Shown one piece after another: positions 25,415 through 52,555 of a stretch of DNA of 64,000 nucleotides (positions within the stretch are counted from its first letter, which is position 1; every line of letters starts with the position of its first letter). The stretch is taken from contig NC_090402.1 of assembly GCF_036365525.1 (NCBI RefSeq), positions 49,017,700-49,081,699 on the forward strand, in the 5' to 3' direction. The translations under genes were made by a program, and so were the position numbers. Source of the DNA: Heterodontus francisci (taxonomy: Eukaryota). The notes beneath the pieces are model-generated. The model had not been told where the DNA came from. It searched no databases and was given only the letters and a program-made list of their open reading frames with translations.

Positions 25415-27981
25415 CCTTTTTTTTTCCTATCTATCTTTTGGGCCTCCTTATCTCGAGAGACAATAGATACGCGCCTGGAGGTGGTCAGTGGTTTGTGAAG
25501 CAGCGCCTGGAGTGGCTATAAAGGCCAATTCTGGAGTGACAGGCTCTTCCACAGGTGCTGCAGAGAAATTTGTTTGTTGGGGCTGTTGCACAGTTGGCTC
25601 TCCCCTTGCGCCTCTGTCTTTTTTCCTGCCAACTACTAAGTCTCTTCGACTCGCCACAATTTAGCCCTGTCTTTATGGCTGCCCGCCAGCTCTGGCGAAT
25701 GCTGGCAACTGACTCCCACGACTTGTGATCAATGTCACACGATTTCATGTCGCGTTTGCAGACGTCTTTATAACGGAGACATGGACGGCCGGTGGGTCTG
25801 ATACCAGTGGCGAGCTCGCTGTACAATGTGTCTTTGGGGATCCTGCCATCTTCCATGCGGCTCACATGGCCAAGCCATCTCAAGCGCCGCTGACTCAGTA
25901 GTGTGTATAAGCTGGGGGTGTTGGCCGCTTCAAGGACTTCTGTGTTGGAGATATAGTCCTGCCACCTGATGCCAAGTATTCTCCGAAGGCAGCGAAGATG
26001 GAATGAATTGAGACGTCGCTCTTGGCTGGCATACGTTGTCCAGGCCTCGCTGCCGTAGAGCAAGGTACTGAGGACACAGGCCTGATACACTCGGACTTTT
26101 GTGTTCCGTGTCAGTGCGCCATTTTCCCACACTCTCTTGGCCAGTCTGGACATAGCAGTGGAAGCCTTACCCATGCGCTTGTTGATTTCTGCATCTAGAG
26201 ACAGGTTACTGGTGATAGTTGAGCCTAGGTAGGTGAACTCTTGAACCACTTCCAGAGCGTGGTCGCCAATATTGATGGATGGAGCATTTCTGACATCCTG
26301 CCCCATGATGTTCGTTTTCTTGAGGCTGATGGTTAGGCCAAATTCATTGCAGGCAGACGCAAACCTGTCGATGAGACTCTGCAGGCATTCGTCAGTGAGA
26401 GATGTTAAAGCAGCATCGTCAGCAAAGAGGAGTTCTCTGATGAGGACTTTCCGTACTTTGGACTTCGCTCTTAGATGGGCAAGGTTGAACAACCTGCCCC
26501 CTGATCTTGTGTGGAGGAAAATTCCTTCTTCAGAGGATTTGAACGCATGTGAAAGCAGCAGGGAGAAGAAAATCCCAAAAAGGGTGGGTGCGAGAACACA
26601 GCCCTGTTTCACACCACTCAGGATAGGAAAGGGCTCTGATGAGGAGCCACCATGTTGAATTGTGCCTTTCATATTGTCATGGAATGAGGTGATGATACTT
26701 AGTAGCTTTGGTGGACATCCGATCTTTTCTAGTAGTCTGAAGAGACCACGTCTGCTGACGAGGTCAAAGGCTTTGGTGAGATCAATGAAAGCAATGTAGA
26801 GGGGCATCTGTTGTTCACGGCATTTCTCCTGTATCTGACGAAGGGAGAGCAGCATGTCAATAGTCGATCTCTCTGCACGAAAGCCACACTGTGCCTCAGG
26901 GTAGACGCGCTCGGCCAGCTTCTGGAGCCTGTTCAGAGCGACTCGAGCAAAGACTTTCCCCACTATGCTGAGCAGGGAGATTCCACGGTAGTTGTTGCAG
27001 TCACCGCGGTCACCTTTGTTTTTATAGAGGGTGATGATGTTGGCATCGCGCATGTCCTGGGGTACTGCTCCCTCGTCCCAGCACAGGCATAGCAGTTCAT
27101 GTAGTGCTGAGAGTATAGCAGGCTTGGCACTCTTGATTATTTCAGGGGTAATGCTGTCCTTCCCAGGGGCTTTTCCGCTGGCTAGGGAATCAATGGCATC
27201 ACTGAGTTCCGATTTGGTTGGCTGTATGTCCAGCTCATCCATGACTGGTAGAGGCTGGGCTGCATTGAGGGCAGTCTCAGTGACAGCATTCTCCCTGGAG
27301 TTCAGTTCTAGGTAGTGCTCAACCCAGCGGTCCATCTGTTTGCGTTGGTCAGTGATTATGTCCCCCGATTTAGATTTGAGGGGGGTGATCTTCTTGATGG
27401 TTGGCCCAAGAGCTCTCTTCATGCCATCATACATTCCTCTGATGTTTCCGGTGTCTGAGGCCAGCTGAATATGACTGCATAGGTGTTGCCAGTAGTCGTT
27501 TGCGCAACGCCTAGCTGTTCTTTGTGCAGTACTTCTGGCTGCTTTAAGTGCTGCGGATGTTAAATCGCTGGGGGCTTTCTTGTAGTTCAAGAGTGCAATG
27601 CGCTTAGCGGCTATGACAGGTTCCAGCTCTTCATTATGAGATTGAAACCAGTCTGCATTTCTCTTCGCACTTTTGCCGTAGGTGGTCAAAGCTGACTCAT
27701 AGATGGCGTCTCTGATGTGGGCCCACTTGGTCTCAGCATCCCCTGTGGGAGTGTTTTGAAGGGCTGTTACAAGTGAATTTAGAAATTTTTGTAACAGCTG
27801 TGGGTGAGAAATTCTGCTCGTGTTGATGCGCGGGTGGCCCTTCTGCTTGGAATGATGCAACTTCTTTGGTCTGAGTCTAACCTTGCTGCACACCAGGGAG
27901 TGGTCGGTGTTGCAGTCCGCACTGTGGAAGCTGCGTGTGATTTGAACACTGTTTAAGGCGGCTCGCCTTGTGACAATGAGG
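25415..27981 (-). mobile_element. RTE-clade LINE, 5'-truncated, uninterrupted ORF (end of APE, RT, C-terminal CCHC-like motif)
   Basis: ORF 25485-28064: NYRGISLLS, FIDLTKAFD, GVKQGCVLAP, LLFADD, CSTCGRACHSRIGLYSH. TSD ACTACATT at 25407-25414 and 27982-27989; A-rich tail. Confidence 0.93.
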
Positions 27982-29074
27982 ACTACATTAAAGGCACTAT
28001 ATAAATGTAGGTTGTTGCTGAAGTTGTAAAATTTGACCTCCAGAGATTGTGGGACCAAAGTCATTACTCAATGTTTCTCTCTGGTGCGCCTTGCTGTCAT
28101 TGTGTTAAATTAAAAGAAAGCTGCTATGAAATCACTTTGCAGCCTTTTATGCTCCAGTAGAAACCTTCTCAGTATCTCAATATCAAGAGGCAGATGTGTC
28201 TGGGAAAGACGACTGTAAACATGGAGGTTCAGGATCTGAAAGGACTCGGGACTTATTGTAAATGGCTGTTACATTGCAGTGAATACTGGACTGGGACAAG
28301 TGATGATGGTGCAGCTGTGTAAATAGCACCAAATACTGTCTGCCTGTGTTACAACAATGTGACCTGTGAATGGATGCATCAAACTGCCACCTGTGCAAAA
28401 GGTAAGAATTAATCACAGAAGAAAATGAGAAAAACCAACTGTTTCATGCATTTGTTTTTATTCAGTTTTATTTGCTTTGCTAAGCAGCCTTACATTGTGA
28501 TAATTGTACAGACACTAGGAGCGCAGAGGCAAGGGAAAGGCTGTGAGGCATCAATTCCATCAGTGATATGACTTCAACAACATTGTTTGAAATATTACAG
28601 AATCAGTACGACATCAGTCACTGGTTCAAATAGTGTCCCTGTTTAAACTAAAGTCTCATTGGGGCCAGTTATTATTGGATCTAACCAGCAATATTCTCCA
28701 GGGCTCTGACCAGTGCCCAGCATGAACATGTTGCCCTGATATTTGTTGAATGTTTTCAGGCACTTGTTGGATGACCTGAGCTGTAATATAAAGTGTTAGT
28801 TGCTGATTCCATTTTTAAGAATTAAGTTTTGTGTAATTTTCACATGTTTGTACTTTCAGATTGAGTTTATAATTCAATGTCACACTGACCCCCACAAGCA
28901 AATATTTGTAAATCGGCAGCACAGATTTCAGCTCATTAAATTATGATCAGTAATTTCTTTATTTCAGCACATGTAGACAAATAGCTAGGGTTGTAGTTCA
29001 ATGCGTTCATCCTTCATTAAATGGTCCTTCCCTCCATGGAGAATGAGATCAATCAAACTGCAATAGATGTAAAA

Positions 29075-29126
29075 TAAATTAGACGTTCTTCTTTATTGAG
29101 TTTCCTTGCTCTGTATTACACCTGCT
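29075..29126 (-). other. Candidate terminal (3' UTR/poly(A)) exon of the prepropeptide gene
   Basis: Minus strand: atttctcacttacattccacag|AGCAGGTGTAATACAGAGCAAGGAAACTCAATAAA... AATAAA at 29097-29092 followed by U-rich sequence; 3' end approximate. Confidence 0.6.
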
Positions 29127-33255: not shown

Positions 33256-34233
33256 GTGACAGCTCTCCCAGCTTTGGCACAAGCCCCCAGTTGTTAGTAA
33301 GGAGGACTTTGCAGGGTCGACAGTGCTTGGTTTGCCATTGTGGTTTCCGATGCCTCAGTGGATGCCGAGTGGTCCATCTGGTTTCATTCCTTATTGACTT
33401 CGTAGCCATTAGCTACAACTGAGTGGCTTGCTAGGCCATTTCAGAGTCAACCACATTGCTGTGGGTCTGGACACATGCAGGCCAGACCGGGTTAGGACAG
33501 CAGATTTCTTCCCTAAAGGACATCAGTCAACCAGTTGGGTTTTTACAATAATGGACAATGGTTTCATGGCCATCATTAGACTAGCTTTTTTTAAATTCCA
33601 GATTTATTAATTGAATTGAAATTCCACCTTCTGCCCTGGTGGGATTCGAGCCCTTGTCCCCACAGCAATACCCTGGGTCTCTGGGTTACTAGACCAGTGA
33701 CAATGCCACTACGCCTCTGCTTCCCCTGTCACATTTCCTACAATACAGCAGTGACTATACTTCAAAAGCACTTCATTAACTTCAATTTCTTCGGGATGTC
33801 CTGTAGCTGGGACAGGTGCCATATAAATGTAAGTCTTTCTTCCTTTACATTCTTTTTGCCTCTCTCATTTCCTTCCTCACTTCTCCTCTCTAGTCCCTGT
33901 ATTCAGCTTGATCCTCTCCCCTATTATTAACCTGATATTTATTCTAAGCCTCCTAGTTTTGTTTTATTTTTATCTCAATCTCTTTTGTCATCCCAGTGGC
34001 TCTAGCTTTGTATGCCCTCCCTTACCCCATCATAGGAATAAGTGTAGTCTGCACCTAATCTATCTTCTTAAGGCCTCCCATTGCTTATTTACTGCTTATG
34101 AAAAAGGACAAGAAATTATAAGAGGTGATAATTTGTCAGCTGTACTTAAGCTCTGCCGTCTGTTTCTCTGTGACTGGCAGCACAGCATAGATCAGTTCAG
34201 AGGCGAGGGAAACTTAGAATGACTTCTACTTAC

Positions 34234-34544
34234 TCAGACCTCAGCTGGAGGCTCTTGCTCAGCCGGAGGCTCTTGCTCAGCCGGAGGCTCTTGCTCAGCC
34301 GGAGGCTCTTGCTCAGCCGGAGGCTCTTCCTCAGCCGGAAGCTCTTGCTCAGCCGGAGGCTCTTCCTCGGCCGAAGGAGGTGCTTTCTCCTCAGTAACTG
34401 GATATTTTGGCTTCAAAGTTTTCTTCATTTTCTTTGCTACTTTCTTCACTATTTTCTTTAGTTTCTTTGCTACTTTCTTCATTATTTTCTTTATTTTCTT
34501 TGCTATTTTCTTCGCTATTTTCTTTGCTTTCTTCAGGAACTTCT
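34234..34544 (-). CDS. Prepropeptide exon 5: Lys-rich helix plus acidic Pro/Glu tail and stop
   Basis: Acceptor ttgccttctatttcag|AGAAGTTCC; ends GTCTGA|gtaagt. Corresponds to ORF 34234-34560. Confidence 0.85.
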
Positions 34545-37500
34545 CTGAAATAGAAGGCAATATTACATCTATCTGGTGTTTTCATTTTGGAACTTTTGGT
34601 CCAAGTTGCAGCTTCGATAATTAGTGATTTATTCAGCTGCATTTCTTAAAACTCCTCCACTTCATCTGGGTTTGCTTATTCAGTGCTGTAGCACCAAACT
34701 GTGCCCTGATGTGGTACTAAATTCTCTTTCAGGGATAACTAATGTGAGAAATTAAAGTGATAAACTGATGCAGTGAGCGATTTTAATGTTAGGGCTTGGC
34801 AGCATTAATGGAGCTGAGAACTGAGCAGTTCACTTTGACCGGGGGATGTTTTCTGCAGGTAACAATGCATTAAGTTACTGTGACGTAGCATATAGAAAGC
34901 ACTGGGTCCTCATAGTTTACACCCCAAGGATTCCTGAAAGCAAACTAGGGAGAAATATCACAAGTCCCACTATAATTTTCTAAATCTCTGAAAAAGTACT
35001 CTGAAAAGTAAAATTGTGCCAGGGACTGCTGGGAAATATCATTCTCTTCAAAAAGGGAGACAGGCACAAGCTGAGAATTTATAATCTCACTTCAATTGTT
35101 GGTAAACCACTAGACTACATAATACCAGAAAGAATTATTATGGCCAACACTTGGGGAGAAAGATGATTAGAGGAGAGAAAGGGAGTTAGTTAGAATGGAA
35201 AGGTAAGGTGAGTGATATATACTTATATACTTTGTTCTTTGATGATCTGGACTAAGGAATTGAGGAAACAATATCGAGATTTGCCAAAGACACCCAATTG
35301 AGGAGGATGGCCCATTCAGACAAAGAGCTTAAAAGATATTAGTTGGTTACAGGATTGGCAGGTGAGTAGAACTCCCCTCCTGACTCCCCAAAGCCTGTCC
35401 ACCATCAACAAGGCACAAGTCAGGAGTGTGATGGAATACTCTCCACTTGCCTGGACGGGTGCAGCTCCAACAACACTCAAGAAGCTTGACACCATCCAGA
35501 ACAAAGCAGCCCGCTTGATTGGCACACCACGCACAAACATTCACTCCCTCCACCACCGACGCACAGTGGCAGCAGTGTGTACCACCTACAAGATGCACTG
35601 CAACAATGTGCTGGTGTCCTATGTCGGCCAGACCAGGTAAGGACAGCAGATTTCCTTCCCTAAAGGACATTAGTGAACCAGATGGGTTTTTACAACAATC
35701 GACAATGGTTTCATGGCCATCATTAGACTAACTTTTAATCGCAGATTCATTAATTGAATTCAGATTCCACCTTCTACTGTGGTGGGATTCGAGCCCATAT
35801 CCCCAGAGCAATAAAATAAAAGCAAAATACTGCAGATGCTGGAAATCTGAAATAAAAGCAATCAATGCTGGAAATACTCAGCAGGTCTGGCAGCATCTGT
35901 GGAGCGAGAGAGGAGCAGAGTTAACGTTTCAGGTCAGTGACCCTTCTTCAGAACTGACAAATATCAGAAATGTAATAGGTTTTAAGCAAGTAAAGTGGGG
36001 TGGGGTAAGAGATCACAAAAAATAAAGTGTTGTTAGGATAAGGTCACAGAGAATAACTGACCACAAGGTCATGCAACAGAGGCAAATGGTATGTTACTGG
36101 TGTGCTGAAAGACAAAGCGTTAGTGCAGAGAGGATGTGAATAGACTGTAAAGCACAAAGCACTCCAAGCACAAACATTTCTGTTTTTTTAAAAAAACAGA
36201 AACAGTGGGTAGGCACAGTAGAAACAAACTAACCAAAATAAAAAAAATTAAAATAAAATAATCAAATAAAAAACAGTAAAAGAAAAAATAACTAAACTTA
36301 AAATGGGGCGGGGGGGTGGGGAGGTGGGGGTGGAGCCGTCATGCTCTGAAATGAATGGATTCAGTGTTCAGTCCGGCAGGGTGTAGTGTGTCTAATCGGT
36401 AAATGAGATGCTGTTCCTCGATTTTGTGTTGTTGTTTGCTGGAACACTGCAGGAGTCCCAGGACAGAGATGTGAGCATGGGAGCGGGTGGGGGGGAGCGG
36501 GGGGTTGGTGGTGTTGAAATGGCCAGCAACCGGAAGTTCAGGGTCCTGCTTACGGACTGAGTGGAGGTGTTCTGCAAAGCGGTCACCCAATCTGCGTTTG
36601 GTCTCCCCAATGTAGAGGAGACCACATTGTGAGCAGCGAATACAGTACACTAAATTGAAAGAAGTACAAGTAAATCGCTGCTTCGCCTGAAAGGAGTGTT
36701 TGGGGCCTTGGATAGTGAGGAGAGATGACAATTCCCTTCCCTTCCTCAACTTCTCTGTCTCCATCTCCAGTGATAGACTGTCTACTAATATTCATTATAA
36801 GCTCACCGACTCCCACAGCTACCTCGACTACACTTCTTCATACCCTGCCTCCTGTAAGGACTCCATTCTCCCAGTATCTCCGCTCCGACGCATCTGCTCT
36901 GATGATGCAACCTTCCACGACAGTGCTTCTGATATGTCTTCCTTTTTCCTCAACCGAGGATTCCCCCTCCACTGTGGTTGACAGGGCCCTCAACCGTGAC
37001 CAGCCCATTTCCTGCACCTCTACCCTCGCCCCTTCCCCTCCCTCCTAGAACCGCGATAGGGTTCCCCTTGTCCTCATTTTCCACCCCACCAGTCTCCACA
37101 TCGAAAGAATCATCCTCCCCCACTTCCGCCACATCCAGCGTGATGCCACTACCAAAGGCATCTTCCCCTTCCTTCCCCTGTCAGCATTCCGAAGGCATCG
37201 TTCGCTCTGCGACACCCTGGTCCACTCCTCCATTACCCCCACCATTTCGTCCCCTTCCCACGGCACCTTCCCCTGCAATCACAGGAGGTGTAATATCTGC
37301 CCATTTACCTCCACTCTCCTCACTAGCCAAGGCCCCAAACATTCCTTTCAGGCGAGGCAGCGATTTACTTGTACTTCTTTCAATGTAGTATAGTGTACTC
37401 ACTGCTCACAATGTGGTGTCCTCTACGTCTGGGAGACCAAGCGCAGACTGGGTGACCGCTTTGCGGAACACCTTCGCTCAGTCCATAAGCATGACCCCGA

Positions 37501-40500
37501 GCTTCCAGTTGCTTGCTATTTCAACAACCCCTCCCCCGCCCCTGCTCTCATGCTCACATCTCTGTCCTGGGATTGCTGCAGTGTTCCAGCGAACATCAAC
37601 GCAAGCTCGAGGAACAGCATCTCATTTATTGATTAGGCACACTACAGCGTGCCGGGCTGAACATTGAATTCAATCATTTCAGAGCATGACTGGATCCCCC
37701 TTTTTATGTTTAGTTATTTTTTTATTATTTCTGTTTTCTTTTTTCTTTGTTATTTGGATATTTTATTTTAGTTTTTTTTTAATTTGGTTAGTTTGCCTAC
37801 TCACTGTTTCTGTTGTTTTTTTTTAAAATTTAATGTTGTGCTTGGAGTGCTTTGTGCTTTACAGTCAATTCACACCCTCTCTGTACTAACGCTTTGTCTT
37901 TCAGCACACTATTAACATACCATTTGCATTTGTTCCATGACCTGGTCAGTTATTCTCTGTGACCTTGTCCAATCAAAACCTTGTCTTTTGTTCTCTCTTG
38001 CCCCACCCCCCGCTTTACTTGCTTAAAGCCTTTTACATTTCTAATATTTGTCAGTTCTGAAGAAGGATCACTGACCTTAAACGTTAACTCTGCTTCTCTC
38101 TCCACAGATGCTGCCAGACCTGCTCAGTATTTCCAGCATCTCTTGTTTTTATCCCAGAGCAATACCCTGGGTCTCTGGGTTACCTAGTCCAGTGACAATA
38201 CCACAACGCCACTGCCTCCCCTAAGGTAGGTAGATCTTGCTTTTTGTTGGGGCCCAGGATTCTTCTTGAACCTTGTTCGCTGTAGGTGACTTTTCTGTCT
38301 TGGGGGTTCATGTGTCTTCAGTGGATTCAGAGGCTTGTGAGAAAGAGATGGGAGCAGACAGGAGAGATCTTCTCAGTCCAGGAGCAAACAGACACTCTCA
38401 CATGGAGATTGGACCTGCTTGAGAAGGGCAGCGGCGGCAGGAGATAAAAACCGGCGGCAAAGAGGGAAGCCCAGCACACGGAGAGTGGACCTGCGTGAGA
38501 AGGGCAGCGGTGGCGGGAGATAAAAACCGGCGGCAGAGAGAGAAGCCCAGCACACGGAGAGTGGACCTGCGTGAGAAGGGCAGCGGCGGCGGGAGATAAA
38601 AACCGGTGGCAGAGAGAGAAGCCCAGCACACGGAGAGTGGACCTGCTTGAGAAGGGCAGCGGCGGCAGGAGATAAAAACCGGCGGCAGAGAGCCACTTCT
38701 ACCTGTTAGTGTTAAAGTGTGACGTCACAGGAAAACAGGTAGGTGATTGGTGGGTATCTCTTCGTGTCTCTTTGAATTGGCCAAGAGGTTTAAATCAAGA
38801 GACGTTATTACCGCTGAAGAGTACAGTTAAGAAATTCTCTTTGAAAATATTTAACATCCAAATTAATTAATTAAATAGAATAAAGATGGCTGGGCAGGTG
38901 ATGCATCGGAGCTGTCGTATATGGAAGCTGGCGGACGCCGGTAGGATCCACATGTGGCCGCATCTGCAGCAAGTGTTGGCTGCTGGAAGACCTTTGGCTC
39001 CGAGTTGATGAGCTGGAGTCCGAGCTGCAGACACTGTGATACATCAGGAAAGGGAGAGTTACCTGGACACTGTTTTAGGAGACAGTCAGACCCCTTAGAT
39101 TAATTACATCAAAGTTGGACCGTGGTCAGGGACAGGAGGGTGCGACTGTGAGTGAGGCAGGTATGGGGATCCAGAATTTAGCTTTGGAGCAGCCTCAGCC
39201 AGTGCCGTTATCCAACAGGTACAAGATTCTTGCTCCCGGTGTGGACAAGGGCACAGACTGCAGGGAGAATGAGCGAACTGACCACAGCACCGTGGTTCAG
39301 AGTGCCATTCAAGTGTGGGGGAGAAGAGAGAAATGTAGAAGTAATAGGGAATAGCATAGTTAGGGGAATAGATACTGTTCTCTGCAGCAAAGATAGGGAG
39401 TACCGAAGGCTGTGTTACCTACCTGGTGCCAAGGTTAAGGACATCTCTTCTGGACTGGAGAGGAACTTGGAGTGGGAGGGGAAGGATCCAGTTGTTGTGG
39501 TCGACATAGTTAGGATTAGGAAAGAGATACTGCTGAGGGACAATGAGCAGCTCGGGGCTAAATTGAAAAGCAGAGCCACAAAGGTAATAATCTCCGGGTC
39601 ACTACCTGAGCCACAGGTAAATTGGCATAGGGTAGATAACATTAGAGAGGTAAACGTGTGGCTCAAAGATTGTTGTGGGAGAAATGGTTTCCGAATTATG
39701 AGGCACTGGCACCAGTACTGGGGAAGGAGAGAGCTGTTCTGTTGGGATGGGCTTCATGTGAACCATGCTGGGATCAGAGTCCTGGTGAATCGTATAACTA
39801 GGGTTGTAGACAGGACTTTAAACTAATTAGTGGGGGGGAGGGTTCAATTGAAGGGAAGTTTTTAAAAGATTTAAAAGAAATGAGAGAGCAAAGATGCAGG
39901 GTAGTGAGGAGGCGAATGATAATCAAAGTGTGACAGGAAGTGCCAGAAAATATAAGCAAAAGAGTGCATCAGAAATTAGAACCAGAATGAGTAATAATGG
40001 CAAAAAATCAAAGTTTAAGGCTCTTTATCCGAATACACGCAGCATTTGTAACAAGATAGATGAGTTGACGGCACAAATAGAAATAAATGAATGTGACTTG
40101 ATAGCTATTAGGGTGACCAAGACTGAACGCTCAATATTCAAGGATATTTGACATTTCGGAAAAATAGGCAAAAAGGAAAAGGAGGTGGGGTAGCTTTGTT
40201 AATAAAGGAAGGTATCAGTGCGGTGGTGAGTCGTGATAAAGGTGCAATAAATGGTGATGTGGAATCAGTTTGTGTGGAAATAAGGAATAGCAAGGGGAAG
40301 AAGTCGCAGGTGAGAGTCGTCTATACGCCTCCGAAGAATTGCCTCACTGTAGGACAAAGTATAAATTGGGAAATAATGGAGGCGTGTAAGAAGGGCGCAA
40401 CAATTGTCATGGGTGATTTTAATTTGCATATTGACTGGACAAATCAGATTGGCAGAGGTAACATGGAAGACGATTTTGTCGAGTGCATCAGGGATTGTTA

Positions 40501-43500
40501 CTTGGAGCAATATGTTGTGGAACCTACCTGGGAACAGGCAATTTTAGATCGAATAATGTGTAATGAAGTAGAATTAATAAGAGATATTGTAGTTAAGGAT
40601 CCTCTAGGGGGTAGCAATCACAACATGGTAGAATTGCAAATTCAGTGTGAGGGCGAGCAACTCGGGTCTCAAACCAGTGTCCTCAATTTAAACAAGGGCA
40701 AGTACAGAGGTATGAAGAAAAAGTTATCTAAAGCGGGCTGGGAAAAGAGACTAAGAAGAAGGTCAGTGGATGAGCAGTGGAAGACATTTAAGAAGATATT
40801 TCATAATGCGCAACAAAAATTTATCCCGGTCAAAAAGAAGGACTCGATGAGAAGGATGAACCACCCGTAATTAACAAAGGCAGTCAAGGAGACTTTCCAA
40901 TCAAAAACTAAAGCATACAAAGCGGCAAAAACTAGTGGTAGGCCAGAGGATTGGGAATTTTTTAGGAACCAGCAATGGATGACTACAAAAGCTAATAAAG
41001 AGGGAGAAAATTGATTATGAAAGTAATTTGGCAAGAAATATAAAAACAAACAGCAAGAGCTTCTACGGGTATATAAAAAGAAAGAGAGTAGCTAAAGTGA
41101 GCGTGGGCCCCTTGGAGAATGCAATTGGAGAAGCGGGGAACAGGGAAATGGCCGATAATTTAAGCCAATATTTTGCATCGGTCTTCACAGTGGAGGACAC
41201 TATAACATCCCACAGATATCAGATAAGCAAGGAGCTAATAGGAGGAAAGATCTTGTAACAGTCTCTATCACGAGGGACAAAATATTTGATAAACTAATGG
41301 GACTAAAGGCACCAGGGCCTGATGGCCTACATCCAAGGGCTTTAAAGGAAGTGGCTGCAGAGATAGTGGAGGCATTGATCAAAATATTCCAGAACCAACT
41401 GGATTCCATGACGGTCCCAGCAGATTGGAAAACTGCTAATGTGATGCCCCTGTTCAAGAAGGGAGGGAAACAAAAAGCAGGAAACTGTAGGCCAGACAGC
41501 CTCACATTGGTCGTTGGGAAAGTGCTAGAGTCCGTTATTAAGGGAGAAATAGCAGGACATTTAGAAAAGCTTAAAGCAATCAAACAGAGCCAACATGGTT
41601 TTGTGAAAGGGAAATCATTTTTGACAAATTTTCTTGAGTTCTTTGAGGATATAACAAGCATAGTTGATAAAGGGGAACCGGTAGATGTAGTGTATTTGGA
41701 TTTCCAGAAGGCATTCGATAAGGTGCCACATAAAAGATTATTGCACAAGATAGGAGCTCACAGTTTTGGGGGTAATGTATTAGCATGGATTGAGGATTGA
41801 TTAACTCTCAAAAGATAGAGAGTTGGGATTAATGGGTCTTTTTCAGGTTGGAAAGGTGTAACTAGTGGAGTGCCACAAGGATCAGTCCGAGAGCCTCAGT
41901 TATTTACTATCTATATTAATGACTTGGAGAAGGGGGCAGAGTGTAATATATCCAAATTTGCTGATGATACAAAAATAGGTGGGAGGGCATGTCGTGATGA
42001 GGACATAAGGAATTTGCAAGGGTATATAGATAGGTTGAGTGAATGGGCAAAAACTTGGCAGATGGAGTTTAATGTCGGAAAGTGCGAGGTCATGCACTTT
42101 GATAGGAAGAATCAAAAGGCAGACTATTATTTAAATGGAAAGAGACTCCAAAAAAGTGCAGTACAGAGGGATCTGGGTGGTCTTGTGCATGAAACACAAA
42201 AAGTTAGCATGCAGGTGCAGCAAGTAATTAAGAAGGCAAATGGAATTTTGGCCTTTACTGCTAGGGGGTTGGAGTTTAAAAATAGGGAAGTCTTGTTGCA
42301 ACAATGTAGAGTGTTGGTGAGGCTGCACCTGGAGTACTGTGTACAGTTTTGGTCCCTGTATTTAAGAAAGGATTGGAGGCAGTTCAAAAGAGATTCACTA
42401 TGCTGATTCCTGGGTTGAAGGGGTTGACTTATCAAGAACAGCTAAACAGGTTAGGCCTTTATTCATTAGAGTTTAGAAGAATAAGGGCTGATCTTATTGA
42501 AACGTACAAGATTTTGAGGGGGCTTGACAGGGTAGATGTTGAAAAGATGTTTCCACTAGTGGGGGAATCTCAAACAAGGGGACATAGTTACAGAATAAGG
42601 GGACACTCATTTAAAACTGAGATGCAAAGGAATTTCTTCTCTGAGGGCAGTGAATGTCTGGAATTCTCTACCCCAGAGAGTTGTGAGGCTAGATCAGTGA
42701 AAGTATTTAAAGAGGAGATAGATAGATTTTTGAAATATTGGGGAGTTGAGGGCTATGAGGAGCTGGCACGAAAGAGGAGTTTGAGGTCTGGGGCAGATCA
42801 GCCACGATCTTATTGAATGGCAGGGCAGGCTTGAGGGGCTGAATGGCCTACTCCTGCTCCTATTTCTTATGTTTTTATGTTCAGTACAAACTGTTTGTAG
42901 AATTCAGAAAAACCCAGATTGCCAAGCAGGTTAGTCATTTGACGAACTGGTCTGACCACGTCTTGGATTGTATCACCTTACCAGTCTCTGGAATACTCCT
43001 TTCACACACCATACCTGGTGATCAAGGTGCATTGAGGGTTAAATGGTCAGGGAATAGTCCTTTGTCCTTTGAATCACCATGTGTTAATATGCAAATGTCT
43101 TTTCCAGCCATGGCTGATCTGTTTAACAAGTTTCTTTCTTCATTCCAGTAACAGTTTAGTCTCAATATTCAAGACAAAATTAATTTGCCTCATTCTTGGC
43201 AGGTCGGGGCCTAACATGACAAGTGCCTTTGATGTTTTAGGAAAGGAAGTGGAAGGCTGGGTTAGCAAGTTTGCCGATGACACGAAGGTTGCTGGAGTTG
43301 TGGATAGTGTGGAAGGCTGTTGTCGGTTGCAACGGGACATTGACAGGATGCAGAGCTGGGCTGAGAAGTGGCAGATGGAGTTCAACCTGGAAAAGTGTGA
43401 AGTGATTCATTTTGGAAGGTCGAATTTGAATGCAGAATACAGGTTTAAAGACAGGATTCTTGGTAGTGTGGAGGAACAGAGGGATCTTGGGGTCCATGTC

Positions 43501-46500
43501 CATAGATCGCTCAAAGTTGCCACCCAAGTTGATAGGGTTGTTAAGAAGGCGTATGGTGTGTTGGCTTTCATTAACAGGGGGATTGAGTTTAAGAGCCGCG
43601 AGGTTATGCTGCAGCTCTATAAGGCCCTGGTTCGACCACACTTGGAATATTGTGTTCAGTTCTGGTCGCCTCATTATAGGAAGGATGTGGAAGCTTTAGA
43701 GAGGGTGCAGAGGAGATTTACCAGGATGCTGCCTGGACCGGAGGGCATGTCTTACGAAGAAAGATTGAGGGAGCTAGGCTTTTCTCATTGGAGCGAAGAA
43801 GGATGAGACGTGACTTGATAGAGGGGTACAAGATGATGAGAGGCATAGATACAGTGGATAGCCAGAGACTTTTTCCCAGGGTGGAAAGGGCTATCACCAG
43901 GGGGCATAATTTTAAGGTGATTGGAGGACGGTTTCGGGGAGATGTCAGAGGTAGGTTCTTTACACAGAGAGTGGTGGGTGCGTGGAATGCGCTGCCAGCG
44001 GTGGTAGTAGAAGCAGATACATTAGGGACATTTAAGCGACTCTTGAATAGGTACATGGATGATAGTAGAATGAAGGGTAGGTAGTTAGTTTGATCTTAGA
44101 GTAGGTTAAAGGTTCGGCACAACATCGTGGGCCGAAGGGCCTGTACTGTGCTGTACTGTTCTATGTTCTATCTCAAAGCGCTTTACAGCCAATAAAGTAC
44201 TTTCGAAGTGTAACAAAAAAACTTCCATTTATAAAGTGCATTTAACGTAGTAAAATGTCCCAAGGTGTTTAACAAGAGCAATAGCAATAAAAACATTTTT
44301 GACACTGAGCCACAGAAGGTGCTATCAGGGCAGATAATTAAAGGCTTGATCAGAGTAGATTTTAAGGAGCATCTTAAAAGAGGAGAGTGAGGTAGACAAT
44401 TAGATACAATGAATAGAGTCAAGCTCAGATAATTACACCCAGCTAGATAGCAGGTATTGGTGAAAGAGGTTGTGGCCAATTTGTGCAAAGCCAAGACTCC
44501 AGGGAGAACTCCCCTGCTCTTTTTCAAATCATGCCATGGGATCCTTTATAGCCACTTGAAAGAACAAACAGGCTCAGTTGAACCTCTCATCTGAAAGGCA
44601 GCATCTCTGACAGTGCAGCACTCCCACAGTACTGCACTGGAGTGTCAGCCTCAACTTTGAATGCAAGTCTTTGGAGTAGGCTTGAATCCATAACCTCTGA
44701 CTCAGAGGAGATAGCATTGCCACTGAGCCATGGCTGATACATTGAGTAATTTTGTCTGTATGTGCGCACGTGGGTCTGTGTGAGATGAGGCCACAGTAAT
44801 CCCTGTTCCTTTTGATAGGACCAGAAATTCAAGCTTTTCAAAAAAAGGAAAATAAATTTCAGTAAGGTAATAATTTGACAGCTGTGCTTAAGCTCTGCAG
44901 TCAGCTTCTCTGCAACTTGCAGCACAGCACAGATCAGTTTAGAGTTGAGGAGCTGGAAATGACTTCTACTTACTCAGGCCTCGCTTCGCAGTGTCAGTCT
45001 GATCCTCAGGCAGTCCTGATTGAATGAGTGTCCTTGCTATTGTTTCTAAAATAGGAGACAGAATTATACTTTTGTGTCATTTTCACTTTCGGATTTTTGA
45101 TCCAAATTTAATTAATTAATGATTTATTCCCTCCATTTCTTAAACCATCTCAATTTAGTCTGGCCTAGCTTATGCACTGCGACAGCATATTACTGTGCCC
45201 TAATGTGGAGGAGAGTGTAGGGTCTGAGACTCTTTATAGGAAGGATATGAAAGTAACGGAAAAGGTCAGCGTGATAACAGGGTCGAGAGGCCGCAGTTAT
45301 GGGGAGAAACTTGAGACGGTGGGACTTTACCGAATCTGAGAAAGATGACCTGGCAGAGATCTTTAAGATTCTGGAAGGTTTTGAGCAGGTAATGAGAAAT
45401 TGTTTCCATTGCCTTCAAAAGGATAATTAGAGGGCATAAACTTTAGATAATAGCAGAAAGAATTAAAAGGGAGGTTTGAAATCAATTCTTTACACAGAGG
45501 GTGTTGGAACCCGGAATTCTCTGCAACAAAGCATTATTGAAGCAAATCTATCAGTTCTTTTTAAAGACTATTAGTTAGTTGCTTGAAAAAGAGGAATATT
45601 CGTGTTTGGGGAATGGGGTGGGGTGAGTTACTCATGGAGAAAAACTTTCAAGATTTCAGTTCTTCAAAAGGCTAGAGTCAGAGTAAGGGACTGTTCAGAA
45701 GGAGATATGGGGTAGAGTAGATGGCAGAGAAAGTGTGGAATGAGGCCAAGGAGGGATTTAAAGGTGAGGACAAGGCTTTTGAATCGAATTGTGACATGCA
45801 GGACAGAGGATGAACTCTATTCTCCACTTCTCTGATGGGATTTGTCTTGTCTGACAATCATCTGACAATACAAAGTCAATCGGGGAGTTGAGGGAAGTGA
45901 AGAGGTAGAATTGGATGCCATCAGCATGCATTGGAAAGATGATTCTATGCTTACACATAATACTGAGACACCATTTACAATTACATTTGTGTTTGTGCTC
46001 ACATAAGTAGAAACCAGTACACACAGGTACTTAATTACTCATAAATGCTGACAGGTACATCAATGTGCTTAGAAGTGCATAAAGACAAATGCAATATATA
46101 AAGTGAGTATTCGACCAACGAGGGCTGGGCAATAAATGTGCCCTTTCCCACATGCCAGGAAAAGACTTTCTCATAGAATAGTTTTCCTGTCAGAAATTGT
46201 TTTCCGTGGAATTATGTTCTGATGAGGAAATATCAATGCTTTCACCAGGTAGTAGGTAACATTGAGAACCACAGAGAGTGAAGATGGAGCCAATGTTAAC
46301 CCACGGTGTAGACTGTGAGATTACAGCACAGTAACTGAGTAACGGGAGATACCGACATCCACATACATCCCACATGATCTACAATACATGTCTCCAATGA
46401 GACCCAGCCAACCTTGGCCCACTGAGCTCATTTCTCATACGTGGGGCACAAGATGTCAGACTGGGTCAGTTTCCTTGGGATCCAAGTGGCTTCCAGGAAT

Positions 46501-49500
46501 ATCGGACAATGTTATAACCAAGTCCCTCCATCAATCCTTTCACTATTGTATTGTTTCAGTAATTAAAAGGAAATGCTTACCAGCTATTTTGCTGCCAATT
46601 CTAAAAAACAACCTACCAATAAATCGGGGTGATGACTCTAAAGGAACAGGATGACAAATGGCACTGATTCGTAGTCGAGATCCGCTGTATTTGTTAAAGT
46701 TCGCTAATATCACTTAGCACTGAGTGCTGGCAAAAGTATATTACAGTAGCCAGTGCTCAAGTGCCAACTGAAAATGTATTCACAGTTAAATTCTGTAAAA
46801 TCCCACTTCTTGTTTTATTTGGCAGTTTACATGGTCCGGCACAAAATAGCACAGTCTAAGGGGACCAACACCCTTCTGACCCCAAATAACCTCCCTCTTC
46901 TGATCTGGCCAAGATCATCTCACTGAGTGGAGACCAAGGTTCGAACTTAGAGCAGGAGGAGGCCATTCAGCCCCTGCACCATTTAGTGAGATCATGGCTG
47001 ATCTCTACCTCAACTGCATTTACCCACCTTTGCTCCATATCTGTTGATAGCTGGACCTAACAATCAACTATCAATGTTAGTCTTGAAAGCTCTTGACCTC
47101 CAGCATCCACAGCCTTTTGGGGGAGGGAGTTCCAGATTTCCAGTACCCTTTGTGTGAAAAGGAGCTTCCTGATTTCACTCCAGCCAGCCTAGCTCTAATT
47201 TTAAAGATTATGTTTCCTTGTTCTCAATTCCCCCATCAGGGAAAATAGTTTCTCCATATCTACCCGATCAAATCCTTGTAACATTTTAAGCACCGCAATC
47301 AGATAATCCCTCAATCTTCTAAACTCAAGAGAATACAAGCCAAATTTATGCAAACTGTCCTCACAATTTAACCGTCTAAGCCCTGGTATCATTCTGCTGA
47401 ATCTCCGCTACACCAAAGCCAATGTGAAATATGGTGCCCAGAACTGAGCGAAGCACTCCGGGGCGTTTGATCAAGGCTGTGTACAACTGAAGCAAGACTT
47501 GCTCCTCTTTGTCTCAGAAGCAAAGGACCTTTATTGCGGAGCACACTCTAATTTGTTAGTTTTCCTCACTTACCCAGATCTTGATTCTCTAGATTGCTAA
47601 CCTCAGACTCTGAATCATCCAACTCACGCAACGCCTCTTCTGAAATAAATAGAAAGTGTTGTATTTTCACAAAGTTATCAGTATAGATGATGATCTCACG
47701 TTGTCAATTACCTGCAGAATTCTTTCAATATTCGAAGCAGCTGAGTGGAGATGTTTGCTGTCTGCTCATAGAATTGCACAGCATGTACAACACAGAAACA
47801 GGCAATTCAGCTCAACTGGTCTGTGCTGGTGTTCATGTTCCACACGAGTCTCCTCCCACCCTACTTCACCTCATCTTATCACATATCCTGCTATTGCTTT
47901 CTCCCTCATGTAGCTTCCCCTTAAATGCATCCATGCCATTCATCTCAACTGCTCCTGTGGTAGTGAGTTCCACATTCGAGCCACTCTGGGTAAAGAAGTT
48001 CCTCCTGTATTCCCTATTGGTGACTGTTCTGTGTTTGTGGCCCCTTGTTCTGGTCTCCCCTACAAAGGGAAACATCTCTACGTCTACACTATCGAACTCC
48101 TTAATAACTTTAAATTCCTCCTATTGGGCCACCCTCAGCCTTTTCTATTTTCCCTAATTCACTTAGGGTTTACCACAAGAGATGTTCCAAGATAGACTAC
48201 TGCTTCCTGAAACAATCCCACCCATCCCAAATAACACACTGTGATATGGGAAAAGAGTGGGAAGAGATGTGTAATGTCACCTCCTCAAGTACCTTTTATT
48301 CTTGTTTTAACTTGGCTGTGAGTAAGGGTAGGTTCCTGACAACAGAAAACCAGGAAACCTTCAATTCACAGCCAGTTGAGCACAATGGATGGAGAGGCTG
48401 CCCCTGGACTCTCACTTCAGTCTGTTTGCCCTCTTTTTGTTCCCCATAAATGTCATTTCAGGGTGACACTGAGCCTTGTGCTTCCTCGCCAATGTTTCTC
48501 CATTCCAGCCCGCTCCTTAAGCTATTGACCCATTCACTAGGATTGGCTCCATGGCCATGGCTCTCCTTTAGACATGTGGGGGAACCACGACAGGAAGTGC
48601 TGGCAGACTGTGCTACTGAGGAGGGAGTCCCAGCCCTGGATCCTGCCCTCAGACAGTGACCCACATCAGGGAAAGTTCTATGTGATTGAGAGTGGCAGTC
48701 GTGGCCAATCTCCCCTTTTCTAACTCAGGTTGCTGCTCCCGATTGTGATGCCCCTGAGATCCTCTCACTCTGTGCAGTCGAGGTTGGGGTGAACTGAGCC
48801 TGTCACAGTCTGTAAGGCAGAGATACACATGGTATGTGAACAGTCCAGACACTTACCCAGCTCTTGCATCTGTGGCTCAGTAACGTCAAACTCAGAATCA
48901 TCCTCCTCGCGCAGCGCCTCTTCTGAAATAAATAGAACATGTATTGTCTCTGTTGTTTCAGTAAAGAACATTTGCTAAATTACTGCCTGTCCCTCTGTCT
49001 AATGTACTTCAGACTGTTGAGTTCAGTTACGCCTGTCCTTTGTTTCTTATTACAGCTTAATTCAGTTTTGCTGGGTGGGATGTCTAATAGACAGGATGTG
49101 TAACAAGTGGGTGTGTTATGGGTGTGTGTTTTCCAGGCACCAATCCACTGACACCCATTTTATACCAACACCGACAGGTAAAATCAGCCCTATACAATAT
49201 CTGCTCCACCACACTACCAGGCAGTGCATTCCAAATCCTAACCATGTACTGTGTAAAAAAATGTTTTTCCTCATGTCGTTGTTGCTTCTTTAGCCATTCA
49301 CCTTAAATCGGTGTTCTCTGGTTCTTGATCCTTCTGCCAATGGTTCTCCCTGTCTACCCTGTCCAGCCCTTTTGTGATTTTGAACATCACTATCTAATCT
49401 CCACTCAACCTTCCCCTCTGCAGAAAACAGCTCCAGCTTCGCCAATGTATCCTCGTAGCTGAAGTCTCTCATCCCTGGAGCCATTCTCGTAAATCTCTTC

Positions 49501-52206
49501 TGCACACTCTTGAATGCCTTCGCATCTTCTGATATTGTGGTGCCCAGGATTGGACACAATGCTGCAATTGAGGCTGAATCGGTTTTATACAAGTTCACCA
49601 TAACTTCCTTGCTTTTGTACTTTTTGTACTCTGTGCCTCTATTTAGAAAGCCCAGGATCCCACATGCCTTATTAATGCCATTCCTAACCTGTCCTGGACA
49701 TATATCCCAGGGCCCTCTGTTCCTTCACCCCCTTTAGAATTGTATCCTTTATTTTATAATGCCTTTGCTGGAATTCCTACGAAAATATATAAGTTGACTC
49801 TTCTCTGCATTGAATTTCATCTGCCACATGTCTCCCCATTCCACCAGCCTGTCTAAGCCCTCTTGAAGGCAATCACTATCCTCATCACAGTTCACAGTAC
49901 TTCCAAGTTCTGTGTCATTTTCAGATTTTGAAATTGTGCCCTGCACACCCAGATCTAGGTCATTAATATAGATCAAGAAAACCAGAGCTCCTCGTACCAA
50001 TTCCCAGGGGAACCCAAGTATATACCTTCCTCCAGTCTGAGAAACAATTGTTGACCACTACTCTCTGTTTCCTGTCACTCAGCCAACTTTGTATCCATGC
50101 TGCTAATGTACCTTTTATTCCATGGGCCTCAACTTTGCTGACAAACCTGTTATGTGGCACTTTGATAACACCTTTTGGAAATGCACGTACACCACATCAA
50201 CCGCATTACACTCAAGCATTTCTGTTACCTCACCAATAAATTCAATCAAGTTAGTTAAACATGATTTGCCTTTAACAAATCTGTGCTGGCTTTCCTTAAT
50301 TGTTCCGTTTGTCTAAGTGACTGTTAATTTTGTCCCAGATTATCGATTCTAAAAGTTTTCCTGCCACCAAGGTTAAACTGACTGGCCTGTAGTTGCTGAG
50401 TTGATCCTTTACACTGTTTTCGGAAGAAGGGTGTAACATTAGCAATTCTCCAGTCCTGTGGCATCACCCCTGTATCTAAGGAGGATTGGAAGATTATGGC
50501 CAGCACCTCCGCAATTTCCACCCTTGCTTCCCTCAGTATTTCGAATACATCTCATCCAGTCCTGGTGACTTAGCAATTTTAAATACAATCTGCCTTTTTA
50601 ATAGGTCTTCCTTATCAATTCTTAGCGCTTCCAGTGTCTCAAGTACCTCTTTCCCTACAACTTGGGAAGCATCTTCTTCTTTGGTAAAGACAGATGCAAA
50701 GTAGTCATTTGGTACCTCAGCCACACCCTCTGCCTCCATGTGTAAATCCACGTTTTGGTCCCTAATGGGCCCCACCCCTCCTCTTACTACCCTTTTAATA
50801 TTTATAAGCCTATGGAAGACGTTTGGATTGCCTTTTATGTTAGCTGCCAGTCTCTTTTCATACTCTATCTTTGCCTCTCCTATTTCCTTTTTCACTTCCA
50901 CTCTGAACTTTCTGTATTTAGACTGATTCCCACTTTTGTAAGATCAACCTGACATCTTTCATATGCATCCTTTTTCTGCTTCATCTTACTCTCTATCTCA
51001 TTCATCGTCTAGAGAGTTTTGGCTTTGCTTGCATACTTTTTCCCTTCATGGGACTGCTGTCCCTTGTTCTCATTGCAGCTCATATCAGTTTCATTGGGCA
51101 GGGTGTTTTACTGGTGGGCTGTATAGGGTGTAAAACAGGTGGATGTATAATGGGTGGGATGTATAATGAGTGGGATGTCTCATGGGCATGGTGTATCGCA
51201 GGCGGGTATTACCGCACCAATCCACTGATACCCATTTTTCACCAACACCAACATTTAAAGTCTGTCCATTACAATATCTAACACTTTGCTGAAATCTAAA
51301 TATCTGGCACCCACATAATTCCCGTGGCCAGCAAAGTTCACCATTTCTTTCAAGACCTTCAGTAAACTTGTTAGACAAGTCTTCTCATAATTGCATAACT
51401 AATCCCTCTAATCCTACTGTATCCCAGTTCATTATCCCCTCTTTCAGAATACCTACCAACGATTTACCCTCGACCAATGACAAAGTCTCTGACCTTTTGC
51501 CTCTTGGGTCATCCGATGGGATTTTTTTTTCAAGATTGCTGCTACATTCCTTACTTTCCAAACCTCAGGCTGTGATCTCATTCCTAATGATTCCCTAAGA
51601 TAAGGGCATGCACAAGACCAATCTTCCTGGCCATTTCTTTAAATAACACTGTCGGACACCCACTCAGGCTTAGTACCTTGTCTTCATTAATCTCCCTCAG
51701 TTTATCAGTGAAATTTAAGTTCCCTTCAGCACTTCTCTCAGATAGGTAAATACGAAGATGTGGAGGATTCACAGGAAACAGAAAACAATAATTAATTTAG
51801 TACAATTACTATCACTTGCTCACTTGTTATTATGGGACCTTTGGGATCTTTCAATGGTTCCATCCTTCCCAATATTTCATTACAATGCTATTGGTTACAA
51901 GGAGGTGTCCAGCAAGTGCTGAGCTGCTGTTTCAACCTCAACACATTCAGTCACTCCTGAATCTTCTGACACTGTTGCAGAAATGTTATATCTTTTACTC
52001 CTCTCTGACCCATGATAGAATAGTCGGAGCAGATACTCTCCTTTAGAATGTTTGTAGGTCTCCAGAAGAGCCTGTATTTCTGTTAGGCTCAGTTGAGATC
52101 AGACCCCAATTGAACAGGTAATTAATATTAACTCACCTGCCCCAGCAGAATGGAGGGCGATCGCACACAATGTGGCCAACAGCACTAGAAGAGAAAGTGG
52201 CTTCAT
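34234..52206 (-). CDS. Spliced 194-aa secreted prepropeptide, cationic amphipathic host-defence-peptide-like; join(52206-52137,48922-48857,47639-47574,45045-44974,34544-34234)
   Basis: Exon lengths 70+66+66+72+311=585 nt form one open frame with GT-AG phase-1 junctions: MKPLSLLVLLATLCAIALHSAGA EEALREEDDSEFDVTEPQMQEL EEALRELDDSESEVSNLENQDL ETIARTLIQSGLPEDQTDTAKR GLKKFLKKAKKIAKKIAKKIKKIMKKVAKKLKKIVKKVAKKMKKTLKPKYPV TEEKAPPSAEEEPPAEQELPAEEEPP(AEQEPP)x4AEV*. Confidence 0.85.
34240..34370 (-). repeat. 18-bp coding tandem repeat (GCTGAGCAAGAGCCTCCG, AEQEPP), about 7.5 units
   Basis: Visible on + strand as repeated CGGAGGCTCTTGCTCAGC. Confidence 0.95.
34410..34533 (-). repeat. 33-bp coding tandem repeat (KKx KKxx KKxx), about 3.7 units
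   Basis: AAGAAAGCAAAGAAAATAGCGAAGAAAATAGCA / AAGAAAATAAAGAAAATAATGAAGAAAGTAGCA / AAGAAACTAAAGAAAATAGTGAAGAAAGTAGCA / AAGAAAATGAAGAAAACTTTG. Confidence 0.9.
35814..38152. mobile_element. Penelope-like element (RT C-terminus + GIY-YIG) with long inverted arm and 12-bp TSD
   Basis: Minus ORF 36339-36764 NLVYCIRCSQCGLLYIGETKRRLGDRFAEHL (GIY-YIG). Plus-strand PFLNFSV...IHYKLTDSHSYLDY and a second GIY-YIG at ~37340-37690. CCCAGAGCAATA at 35802-35813 and 38153-38164. Confidence 0.88.
35919..35955 (-). ncRNA. Minimal hammerhead-ribozyme motif in Penelope terminus
   Basis: AGTT-CTGAAGA-A-GGGTCA-C-TGACCT-GAAA-CG-TT-AACT: CUGANGA and GAAA cores, stem II hairpin, palindromic stem III and AGTT/AACT stem I. 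Variants at 1672-1708, 2059-2095 and 38053-38089. Confidence 0.6.
38395..38692 (+). repeat. 76-bp GC-rich tandem monomers (about 4) at the 5' end of a CR1
   Basis: GGACCTGC recurs at 38411, 38487, 38563 and 38639. Confidence 0.92.
38395..42883 (+). mobile_element. Essentially full-length decayed CR1 LINE (5' monomers, ORF1 esterase, ORF2 APE+RT, 3' UTR) in intron 4
   Basis: ORF1 from ATG 38887 including 39230-39826 (VIGNSIVRGIDT...WDGLH); APE 40148-40870; RT 41297-42406; tail ATTTCTTATGTTTTTATGTTC. Confidence 0.9.
43230..44170 (+). mobile_element. CR1/HER1 LINE 3' fragment, relatively young
   Basis: ORFs 43069-43806 (KFADDTK...[13 protein letters not shown]) and 43788-44084; tail GTACTGTTCTATGTTCTAT. 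Confidence 0.9.
44974..45045 (-). CDS. Prepropeptide exon 4 (ETIARTLIQSGLPEDQTDTAKR-GL)
   Basis: tgtctcctattttag|AAACAATAGC...GAAGCGAGGCCTGA|gtaagt; 72 nt, phase 1-1; carries the KR site. Confidence 0.85.
46945..47510 (-). mobile_element. CR1 LINE 3' fragment
   Basis: ORF 47201-47392 (IPGLRRLNCEDSLHKFGLYSLEFRRLR) plus 3' UTR. Confidence 0.75.
47574..47639 (-). CDS. Prepropeptide exon 3 (EEALRELDDSESEVSNLENQDL)
   Basis: ttctatttatttcag|AAGAGGCGTTG...GATCTGG|gtaagt; 66 nt, phase 1-1. Confidence 0.85.
48857..48922 (-). CDS. Prepropeptide exon 2 (EEALREEDDSEFDVTEPQMQEL)
   Basis: ttctatttatttcag|AAGAGGCGCTG...GAGCTGG|gtaagt; 66 nt, phase 1-1. Confidence 0.85.
49210..51047 (-). mobile_element. 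Decayed CR1 LINE fragment (RT region)
   Basis: ORF pieces 50533-50901, 50324-50521 (DWRIANVTP), 49963-50160, 49749-50000. Confidence 0.8.
52137..52206 (-). CDS. Prepropeptide exon 1, signal peptide MKPLSLLVLLATLCAIALHSAGA
   Basis: GGGAAAATGAAG start context; basic n-region, hydrophobic core, A-G-A cleavage motif; donor CAG|GTGAGT. Confidence 0.88.
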
Positions 52207-52224: not shown

Positions 52225-52555
52225 CGAGTGATGAGCTACAGTCTCCTCTGCCCCTTATGTACCATCTTATCATCACATCTCAGAATTTGTCCTAATCTCA
52301 CTTTCCAAGAAAAACCTTGTTCTTTGTCAGGACAATGCTCACCTGGTTGACAATCTGATTCCAGGTAATAGCTGTGACAGATAGGAGGAGGCCAGACCTC
52401 AAATGAGTCACTGCATGTCTTTAAAGCATTCATTGTTCTTTCATTTCTTATTCTCAGCCCTGTTATACAAAGATTGCCCATAACAGAGGGAGTCACAGTG
52501 TGAGTCAAATGATGAGATCGGTAGATTCTGAGGTGCAGGCCTGTTGCGGTCAAAT
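52225..52555 (-). promoter_or_regulatory. Candidate proximal promoter of the prepropeptide gene
   Basis: TATA-like TACATAAG (52261-52254), Inr-like TCACTC about 30 nt downstream, GATAAG (52271-52266), STAT/GAS TTCCAAGAA (52303-52311), AP-1 TGAGTCA (52404-52410, 52501-52507), RUNX-like TGCGGT (52545-52550). Confidence 0.55.

Follow-up and report, generated by a model that had tools for sequence, protein, structure and literature searches.

In the skin antimicrobial peptide (AMP) precursors of ranid and hylid frogs, those of the brevinin and dermaseptin type, a Lys-Arg pair precedes a peptide that starts with Gly-Leu. In ranid genes, a single exon codes for all that comes after the signal (PMC13128954, available sections). 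The AMP genes of pipid frogs (magainin, caerulein/CPF, PGLa, and hymenochirin) are laid out as signal, acidic spacer, basic cleavage site, and helix (PMC3731216, PMC3899252); in the available parts of their descriptions, the coding sequence of the helix spans an exon junction and exons are duplicated in tandem. Piscidins, as far as the available part of PMC3978493 describes them, have the mature peptide directly after the signal and a C-terminal prodomain, in a gene of 3–5 exons. Cathelicidins have a cathelin prodomain of 99–114 amino acids with four cysteines and a peptide in the last coding exon that in some cases is built from repeats (PMC3487008, available sections).

The only antimicrobials named from sharks and skates in the available part of a 2019 review (PMC6795676) are transferrin, squalamine, and kenojeinin I. 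No shark family of gene-encoded helical AMP precursors appears in that part or in the available part of PMC10707392, and none from cartilaginous fishes was found in the open-licence literature, a scope that excludes subscription journals.

We analyzed a window of 64 kb (the whole stretch of DNA, 64,000 nucleotides) from the shark Heterodontus francisci and found a gene that we read, with a probability of about 65%, as encoding the precursor of a single host-defence peptide and as having grown through successive duplications of short exons in phase 1-1. Five coding exons with AG/GT borders were predicted on the minus strand; all introns are in phase 1, and splicing gives a single frame of 194 codons (Table 1). 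Splice sites were scored with a simple matrix, by which 1626 GT and 2325 acceptor sites were ranked. All nine sites of the model fell in the top 5% of scored sites; the donor of exon 1 ranked 1/1626, and those of exons 4 and 5 were moderate (rank 76/1626).

The predicted 194-aa product begins with a 23-aa signal-like sequence, judged by eye, and a 66-aa propiece of net charge −18 that ends in Lys-Arg. A 51-aa segment of net charge +26 starting with Gly-Leu follows, and then a 54-aa Pro/Glu tail of net charge −18. The first 44 exon 5-frame residues of the +26 segment are predicted to form an amphipathic helix. The stop codon of exon 5 is its final codon, with a GT directly after it, so a non-coding last exon is likely; the acceptors of the candidate rank 12 and 25 of 2325. 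There may also be a non-coding exon upstream of coding exon 1. GAS-type, GATA, and TATA-like motifs all lie at most 105 nt from the ATG, a weak signal; 19 GAS-type sites in the 64 kb make the chance of one within 200 bp about 6%.

Table 1. Features of the predicted peptide gene (positions in the 64-kb window)
Feature	Positions	Strand	Remarks
Putative proximal promoter	52255..52311	-	Regex scan with consensus motifs; weak, post hoc
STAT/GAS-type site	52303-52311	-	Regex scan
GATA site	52267-52272	-	Regex scan
TATA-like box	52255-52261	-	Regex scan
Coding exon 1	52137..52206	-	ATG; 23 aa, signal-peptide-like, ends Ala-Gly-Ala; phase 1 intron
Exon 2	48857..48922	-	66 nt, phase 1-1; acidic propiece unit
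Exon 3	47574..47639	-	66 nt, phase 1-1; duplicate of exon 2
Acceptor-side flank, exon 4	45046..45208	-	Homologous to 34545-34714; 45 mismatches in 163 aligned nt
Exon 4	44974..45045	-	72 nt, phase 1-1; end of propiece, Lys-Arg, predicted peptide residues 1-2 (Gly-Leu)
Donor-side flank, exon 4	44842..44973	-	Homologous to 34101-34233; 20 mismatches in 130 aligned nt
Acceptor-side flank, exon 5	34545..34714	-	Self-BLAST and intron-only alignment
Exon 5	34234..34544	-	311 nt; last coding exon, basic helix and acidic tail
Exon 5, part 1	34414..34544	-	Four 33-nt units (12+9+12); four 11-residue repeats, predicted amphipathic helix
Exon 5, part 2	34240..34377	-	7.7 copies of an 18-nt unit; acidic Pro/Glu hexapeptide tail
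Exon 5 end	34234..34243	-	Putative out-of-frame vestige of the exon 4 end; stop is the final codon before the GT donor
Donor-side flank, exon 5	34101..34233	-	Self-BLAST and intron-only alignment
Candidate non-coding last exon	28945..29126	-	Inferred only; acceptor at 29126 or 29057; AATAAA at 29097 and 28963

The product has the predicted frog-skin-type architecture of a signal, an acidic spacer, a dibasic site, and a cationic amphipathic helix. It shares a signal exon and an acidic propiece with ranid and hylid precursors, but its propiece is divided among three exons and its peptide is followed by an acidic tail. The layout, a helix coding sequence across an exon junction, and tandem exon duplication are common to the pipid genes. 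However, the trak1/ulk4/ctnnb1 synteny of the cck-derived pipid family was not seen within the 64-kb window, where the only recognized neighbors of the peptide gene are an HDHD3 copy and a SPRY fragment, and the homologue searches revealed no cck homology. According to the available pipid descriptions, the repeats of that family are near-identical and yield several peptides, whereas the shark duplicates have grown apart, one now serving as a linker and the other as the exon of a single peptide.

A linear amphipathic helix followed by a C-terminal prodomain (here the acidic 54-aa tail, with putative removal) is also found in piscidins and pleurocidins, but in the shark gene the 66-aa acidic propiece stands between signal and peptide, and the helix is about twice the piscidin length and built from repeats. 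As in cathelicidins, a last coding exon of its own encodes the peptide, which is repeat-built in some of them as far as their available descriptions go. Unlike cathelicidins, the hagfish HFIAP included, the shark gene has no cathelin domain, its propiece having 66 aa and exons 2–5 lacking Cys; in place of four exons with the peptide wholly in exon 4, it has five coding exons and a peptide whose coding sequence is split between the last two of them, with its start in exon 4. On the best reading, the gene encodes an orphan host-defence precursor that would work in the manner of the frog-skin AMP precursors, on which it converges, and that bears a tail like that of piscidins.

The preliminary description of this DNA had claimed that the introns around exons 4 and 5 are homologous on both sides, and our results agree. 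Self-BLAST aligned the donor-side flanks (34101–34242 with 44842–44982) at 81.9% identity over 144 columns (E = 1e-31) and the acceptor-side flanks (34544–34714 with 45045–45208) at 69.6% over 171 columns (E = 1e-12). The 20-mer that had been quoted as shared lies at 34218–34237 and 44958–44977. In local alignments of intron sequence only, the z scores were 38 on the donor side and 27 on the acceptor side, and 0/300 dinucleotide shuffles equaled either score. The matches extend right to the AG and the GT and stop at the splice sites. Farther out, four tests found no extension of the duplicated unit (z −0.4 to 0.4). These alignments indicate that exons 4 and 5 very probably have a common origin from one exon-plus-flanks unit.

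The window is repeat-rich vertebrate DNA, with 62% of its length matched by other places inside it in a self-match scan. The shared flanks might belong to a dispersed repeat, which the preliminary description had named as the finding that would undo its proposal. Within the 64 kb this does not hold: each flank has a single partner elsewhere in the window in the self-match scan, nhmmer profiles of the flanks detected just these two copies at E < 0.1, also when the 10 kb of intron separating the exons are counted in, no terminal inverted repeat common to both copies was found, and Rfam and tRNA scans gave zero matches.

The HDHD3 copy at 22632–23354, a single exon, is 98% identical to the H. francisci protein, as against 72–81% for the eight shark and ray proteins that rank after it, which points to a bullhead shark or a paralogous locus of one; it has a premature stop at codon 18 and five substitutions relative to H. 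francisci, so the region around the peptide gene may be decaying. This neighbor, and also the lack of a public protein match although H. francisci is annotated, would fit a pseudogene lying in a segmental duplicate that is falling into decay, or flanks that are a dispersed element exonised twice. Such a reading is nevertheless quite improbable for a gene whose five exons are all intact and in frame, and the flank matches that end exactly at splice sites, in only two copies within the window, argue against a dispersed element.

Between the splice sites, the two exons have little in common. Their ends are identical at 8/10 nt and are read in different frames, as Arg-Gly-Leu in exon 4 and as Glu-Val-stop in exon 5, in agreement with what had been noticed earlier. 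The resemblance of TIAR in exon 4 to KIAK in exon 5, which had been taken as a sign of kinship, exists (10/12 nt, in the same frame) but is at chance level, since 166/300 triplet shuffles contain a best 12-mer with 10 or more matches. The local score of exon 4 against exon 5, introns left out, was reached in 208/300 shuffles. Colinear global alignment gave p values of 0.0005–0.008 with the terminal 10 nt and of 0.03–0.17, borderline at best, without them.

A second pair of duplicates is formed by exons 2 and 3, which are identical at 50/66 nt (z = 17.6; 0/300 shuffles) and have mostly decayed flanks. The two pairs contrast: exons 2 and 3 kept the exon and lost the flanks, and exons 4 and 5 kept the flanks while the exon was remodelled. 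Four exon comparisons did not support homology of exons 2/3 with exons 4/5 (z ≤ 0.6), and the best flank comparison across the pairs (upstream flank of exon 2 against that of exon 5; 5/300 shuffles) may only reflect the pyrimidine tract.

Exon 5 itself is made of two arrays. In the basic array, TRF found a period of 33 nt with 3.7 copies; these 33 nt (11 residues) are the real higher-order unit, in place of the 12-nt KIAK unit first proposed. The repeat pattern is K-K-h-h-K-K-h-K-K-h-h, with Lys at 24/24 lysine positions and apolar residues at 19/20 of the others. The maximum of the hydrophobic moment, 0.79, falls at 98 degrees per residue, where a pure four-residue repeat has 0.00; the 4+3+4 spacing, with its three-residue blocks, therefore keeps one apolar face over 12 turns. 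With the order of the 12 blocks shuffled 20,000 times, 6.4% of the trials equaled the moment of the real array, so the block order gives no significant effect. AlphaFold2, run without an alignment, predicted a helix at residues 2–43 (pLDDT about 90) and gave the tail no structure. When 44,738 windows were scanned across the six frames, 30 proved cationic and amphipathic, and every one of these belongs to the frame of exon 5.

Nucleotides that deviate from the majority of their column number 1/72 in lysine codons and 15/60 in other codons, or 0/54 and 7/45 in units 1–3 alone. The units are not independent, and slippage or conversion explains the invariance of the lysine codons, synonymous sites included, as well as selection does. 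In the acidic array, TRF gave 93% matches.

The pooled divergence of the flanks of exons 4 and 5 is 22% (JC 0.26), and that of the repeats is lower, at 3.7% among the six inner 18-mers of the acidic array and 9–15% among units 1–3 of the basic one. The duplication thus came first, and the arrays, which are much younger, expanded later. We also tried an absolute date with the epaulette-shark pedigree rate of 7e-10 per generation (PMC10587355, available part); it gave ~2e8 generations, which is implausible, and the duplication is therefore called merely old.

It had been proposed that the peptide exon arose as a duplicate of exon 4 followed by repeat expansion. The common unit and the younger arrays bear out part of this proposal; the direction is a matter of inference, as the interiors of the two exons are unalignable. 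Exon 4 requires its KRGL end, whereas exon 5 has only a remnant of it, read out of frame; an exon-4-type origin is the simplest account of this, and from the sequences we consider this direction somewhat the more probable. A tandem duplication would have copied an exon ending in KRGL together with the intron sequence on either side; of the two copies, the downstream one would have lost its frame at the 3′ end and become the last coding exon, and slippage or unequal crossing-over would later have produced the 33-nt basic and the 18-nt acidic array.

By eye and post hoc, we observed that GAGG occurs twice in exon 4, 25 nt apart. Loss between the two may have produced an end that matches exon 5 at 11/15 nt and places the stop; the length after such a loss equals that of exon 5 modulo 3 (47 and 311).

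Both exons may instead come from a peptide-bearing ancestor. The preliminary description regarded the gene as built, like a polyprotein precursor, of [peptide-spacer-KRGL] modules, and in a decayed form of this idea the ancestor had several such exons, the peptide of exon 4 has shrunk, and relatives keep several. With its symmetric phase (1-1) and its KRGL end, exon 4 could be copied in tandem and the frame kept; a mild amphipathic character (moment 0.41) marks its first 13 residues, and tandem exons of this kind occur in the magainin, caerulein, and hymenochirin genes as partly described. Those 13 residues are, however, net neutral and have no dibasic site before them. In the gene as it stands, we found one Lys-Arg, one cationic segment, and an exon 5 end that is out of frame and closes with a stop, rather than at least two in-frame peptides that each follow a processing site, and the modular structure was not borne out. 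No cationic phase-1 frame was present after 11 good non-repeat downstream acceptors in the 64-kb window, where a third copy of the flanks was also missing, and the available accounts of frog repeats have them near-identical, unlike the interiors of exons 4 and 5. A decayed polyprotein, or the reverse direction, is rather doubtful.

Searches for homologues covered exon 1, exons 2/3, and exon 5, each by itself; low complexity and the limits set on protein length weaken the negative results that follow. The exon 5 read-through matched 0/6153 candidates at E ≤ 1e-5 (proteins of 63–202 aa), and the exon 2/3 alignment 0/587 at E ≤ 10 (proteins of 80–2000 aa). Against 1.84 billion representatives, exon 5 gave five matches, all on the acidic tail and to unrelated-looking proteins, and the ESM Atlas gave no usable match. 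In Pfam, no family passed the cut-off with exon 5 (among 25 of 26 matches listed) or with exon 1, and the frog signal/propeptide family was absent among the three matches of the exon 1 read-through, all under the cut-off. H. francisci proteins were in the searched set, so that the gene has probably diverged or was missed in that annotation. Among PDB sequences, the best matches were designed helical bundles, and apolipoprotein A-IV appeared with E values of only 0.2–0.5.

Amphipathic repeats of 11 residues are typical of exchangeable apolipoproteins, and secreted low-complexity proteins are common. The product could thus be a secreted polyanion-binding or structural protein (of mucus or egg case, sperm-associated, or lipid-binding) with a non-lytic basic helix. 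This is hardly probable, because the lone Lys-Arg and the Gly-Leu stand exactly at the switch from acid to base and the charge-complementary arms fit a masked peptide; the Pfam result for exon 5 also argues against it.

As a host-defence precursor, the product would enter the secretory pathway with its basic helix masked by two acidic arms. A convertase would cleave after Lys-Arg, the acidic tail would be trimmed by another protease or retained as a brake, and the released lysine-rich helix would bind and permeabilise anionic microbial membranes. A membrane-active defence function of the peptide is, on its predicted properties, probable. Lysine-rich helices with a narrow apolar face favor anionic membranes, which is established AMP biophysics.

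The dorsal fin spines of Heterodontus are reputed to be venomous, and a 44-residue helix is long for an AMP. Both points count for a real precursor whose peptide is a cytolytic deterrent of the skin or fin spines, aimed at predators or parasites and not at microbes. Fish skin toxins and antimicrobials do overlap, and venoms may come from skin secretions (PMC6409815), but the literature gave this reading no support, Heterodontus being absent from the available part of that paper. A helix that is 55% lysine with a narrow apolar face favors anionic membranes, and we hold a deterrent to be most improbable.

Two designed peptides resemble the predicted peptide: KFLKKAKK, an exact 8-residue match, is common to MSI-78/pexiganan and the peptide start (PMC7412451, in part), and KIAKKIA, an exact 7-residue match, is the unit of a designed selective antibacterial peptide, (KIAKKIA)n (PMC3348531, in part). 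Both have the same Lys/apolar pattern and are synthetic. They demonstrate bacterial killing for sequences of this kind but not for the shark peptide itself; the likeness is low-complexity convergence, not descent.

Tentatively, and with more doubt than confidence, we suggest that sharks own a family of linear, helical peptides for host defence that annotation has so far missed, and that this gene records the birth of one, with a 44-residue helix on an 11-residue register and an acidic tail both made from short tandem repeats alone. A duplicated propiece exon bearing the cleavage site would have grown a helix and its neutralising tail with no older peptide involved, converging on designed Lys-rich antibiotics. 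Exon duplication in AMP genes is already well known, which makes this part less of a surprise. If active, the peptide would fill a gap in what is described of innate immunity in sharks, and cationic peptides that tolerate salt could be modelled on it as a natural template. The gene would also let one follow how repeat expansion turned a duplicated linker exon into the source of an active peptide, a tractable example that existing shark genomes could date.

Exons 2 and 3, the acidic propiece units of the predicted five-coding-exon gene, are duplicates of each other. Twelve of the 21 whole codons differ between them, and nine of these 12 differences are non-synonymous; acidity was preserved despite the codon differences.

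The gene has repeats within and beside it. The minisatellite sits in the intron that separates exon 4 from exon 5, and the gene is adjoined on the downstream side by a young element whose open frame we take to be a LINE-type reverse transcriptase, with related copies (87-94%) revealed elsewhere by self-comparison of the window. The inverted pair near the window start belongs to a dispersed repeat family.

The neighbouring single-exon HDHD3 copy is probably a pseudogene and possibly marks a segmental duplicate. Its substitutions include D190N, which falls in a motif presumed to be catalytic. The SPRY fragment, preceded by repeat sequence, may be a truncated last exon; the gene order around HDHD3 in human suggests that it belongs to BSPRY.

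Features in the window
Feature	Position	Strand	Details
Inverted pair, 144 nt each	1634-1777 and 1990-2133		98.6%, near-perfect (self-comparison of window)
C-terminal SPRY fragment	4189-4410	+	Pfam E 0.005, under cut-off
HDHD3 copy	22632-23354	+	Stop at codon 18; five substitutions vs H. francisci
Putative LINE-type reverse transcriptase, 860-aa open frame	25485-28067	-	Related copies at 87-94% in the window
76-nt minisatellite	38399-38692		3.9 copies, 94% matches
Exons 2 and 3	48857-48922 and 47574-47639	-	Codon comparison
Possible splice acceptors	52215 and 52371	-	52371 by splice-site scoring, 52215 by eye

Two possible acceptors lie upstream of the ATG, and the gene may therefore have an additional non-coding first exon. 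Frog AMP genes have such an exon, a feature that the shark gene may share.
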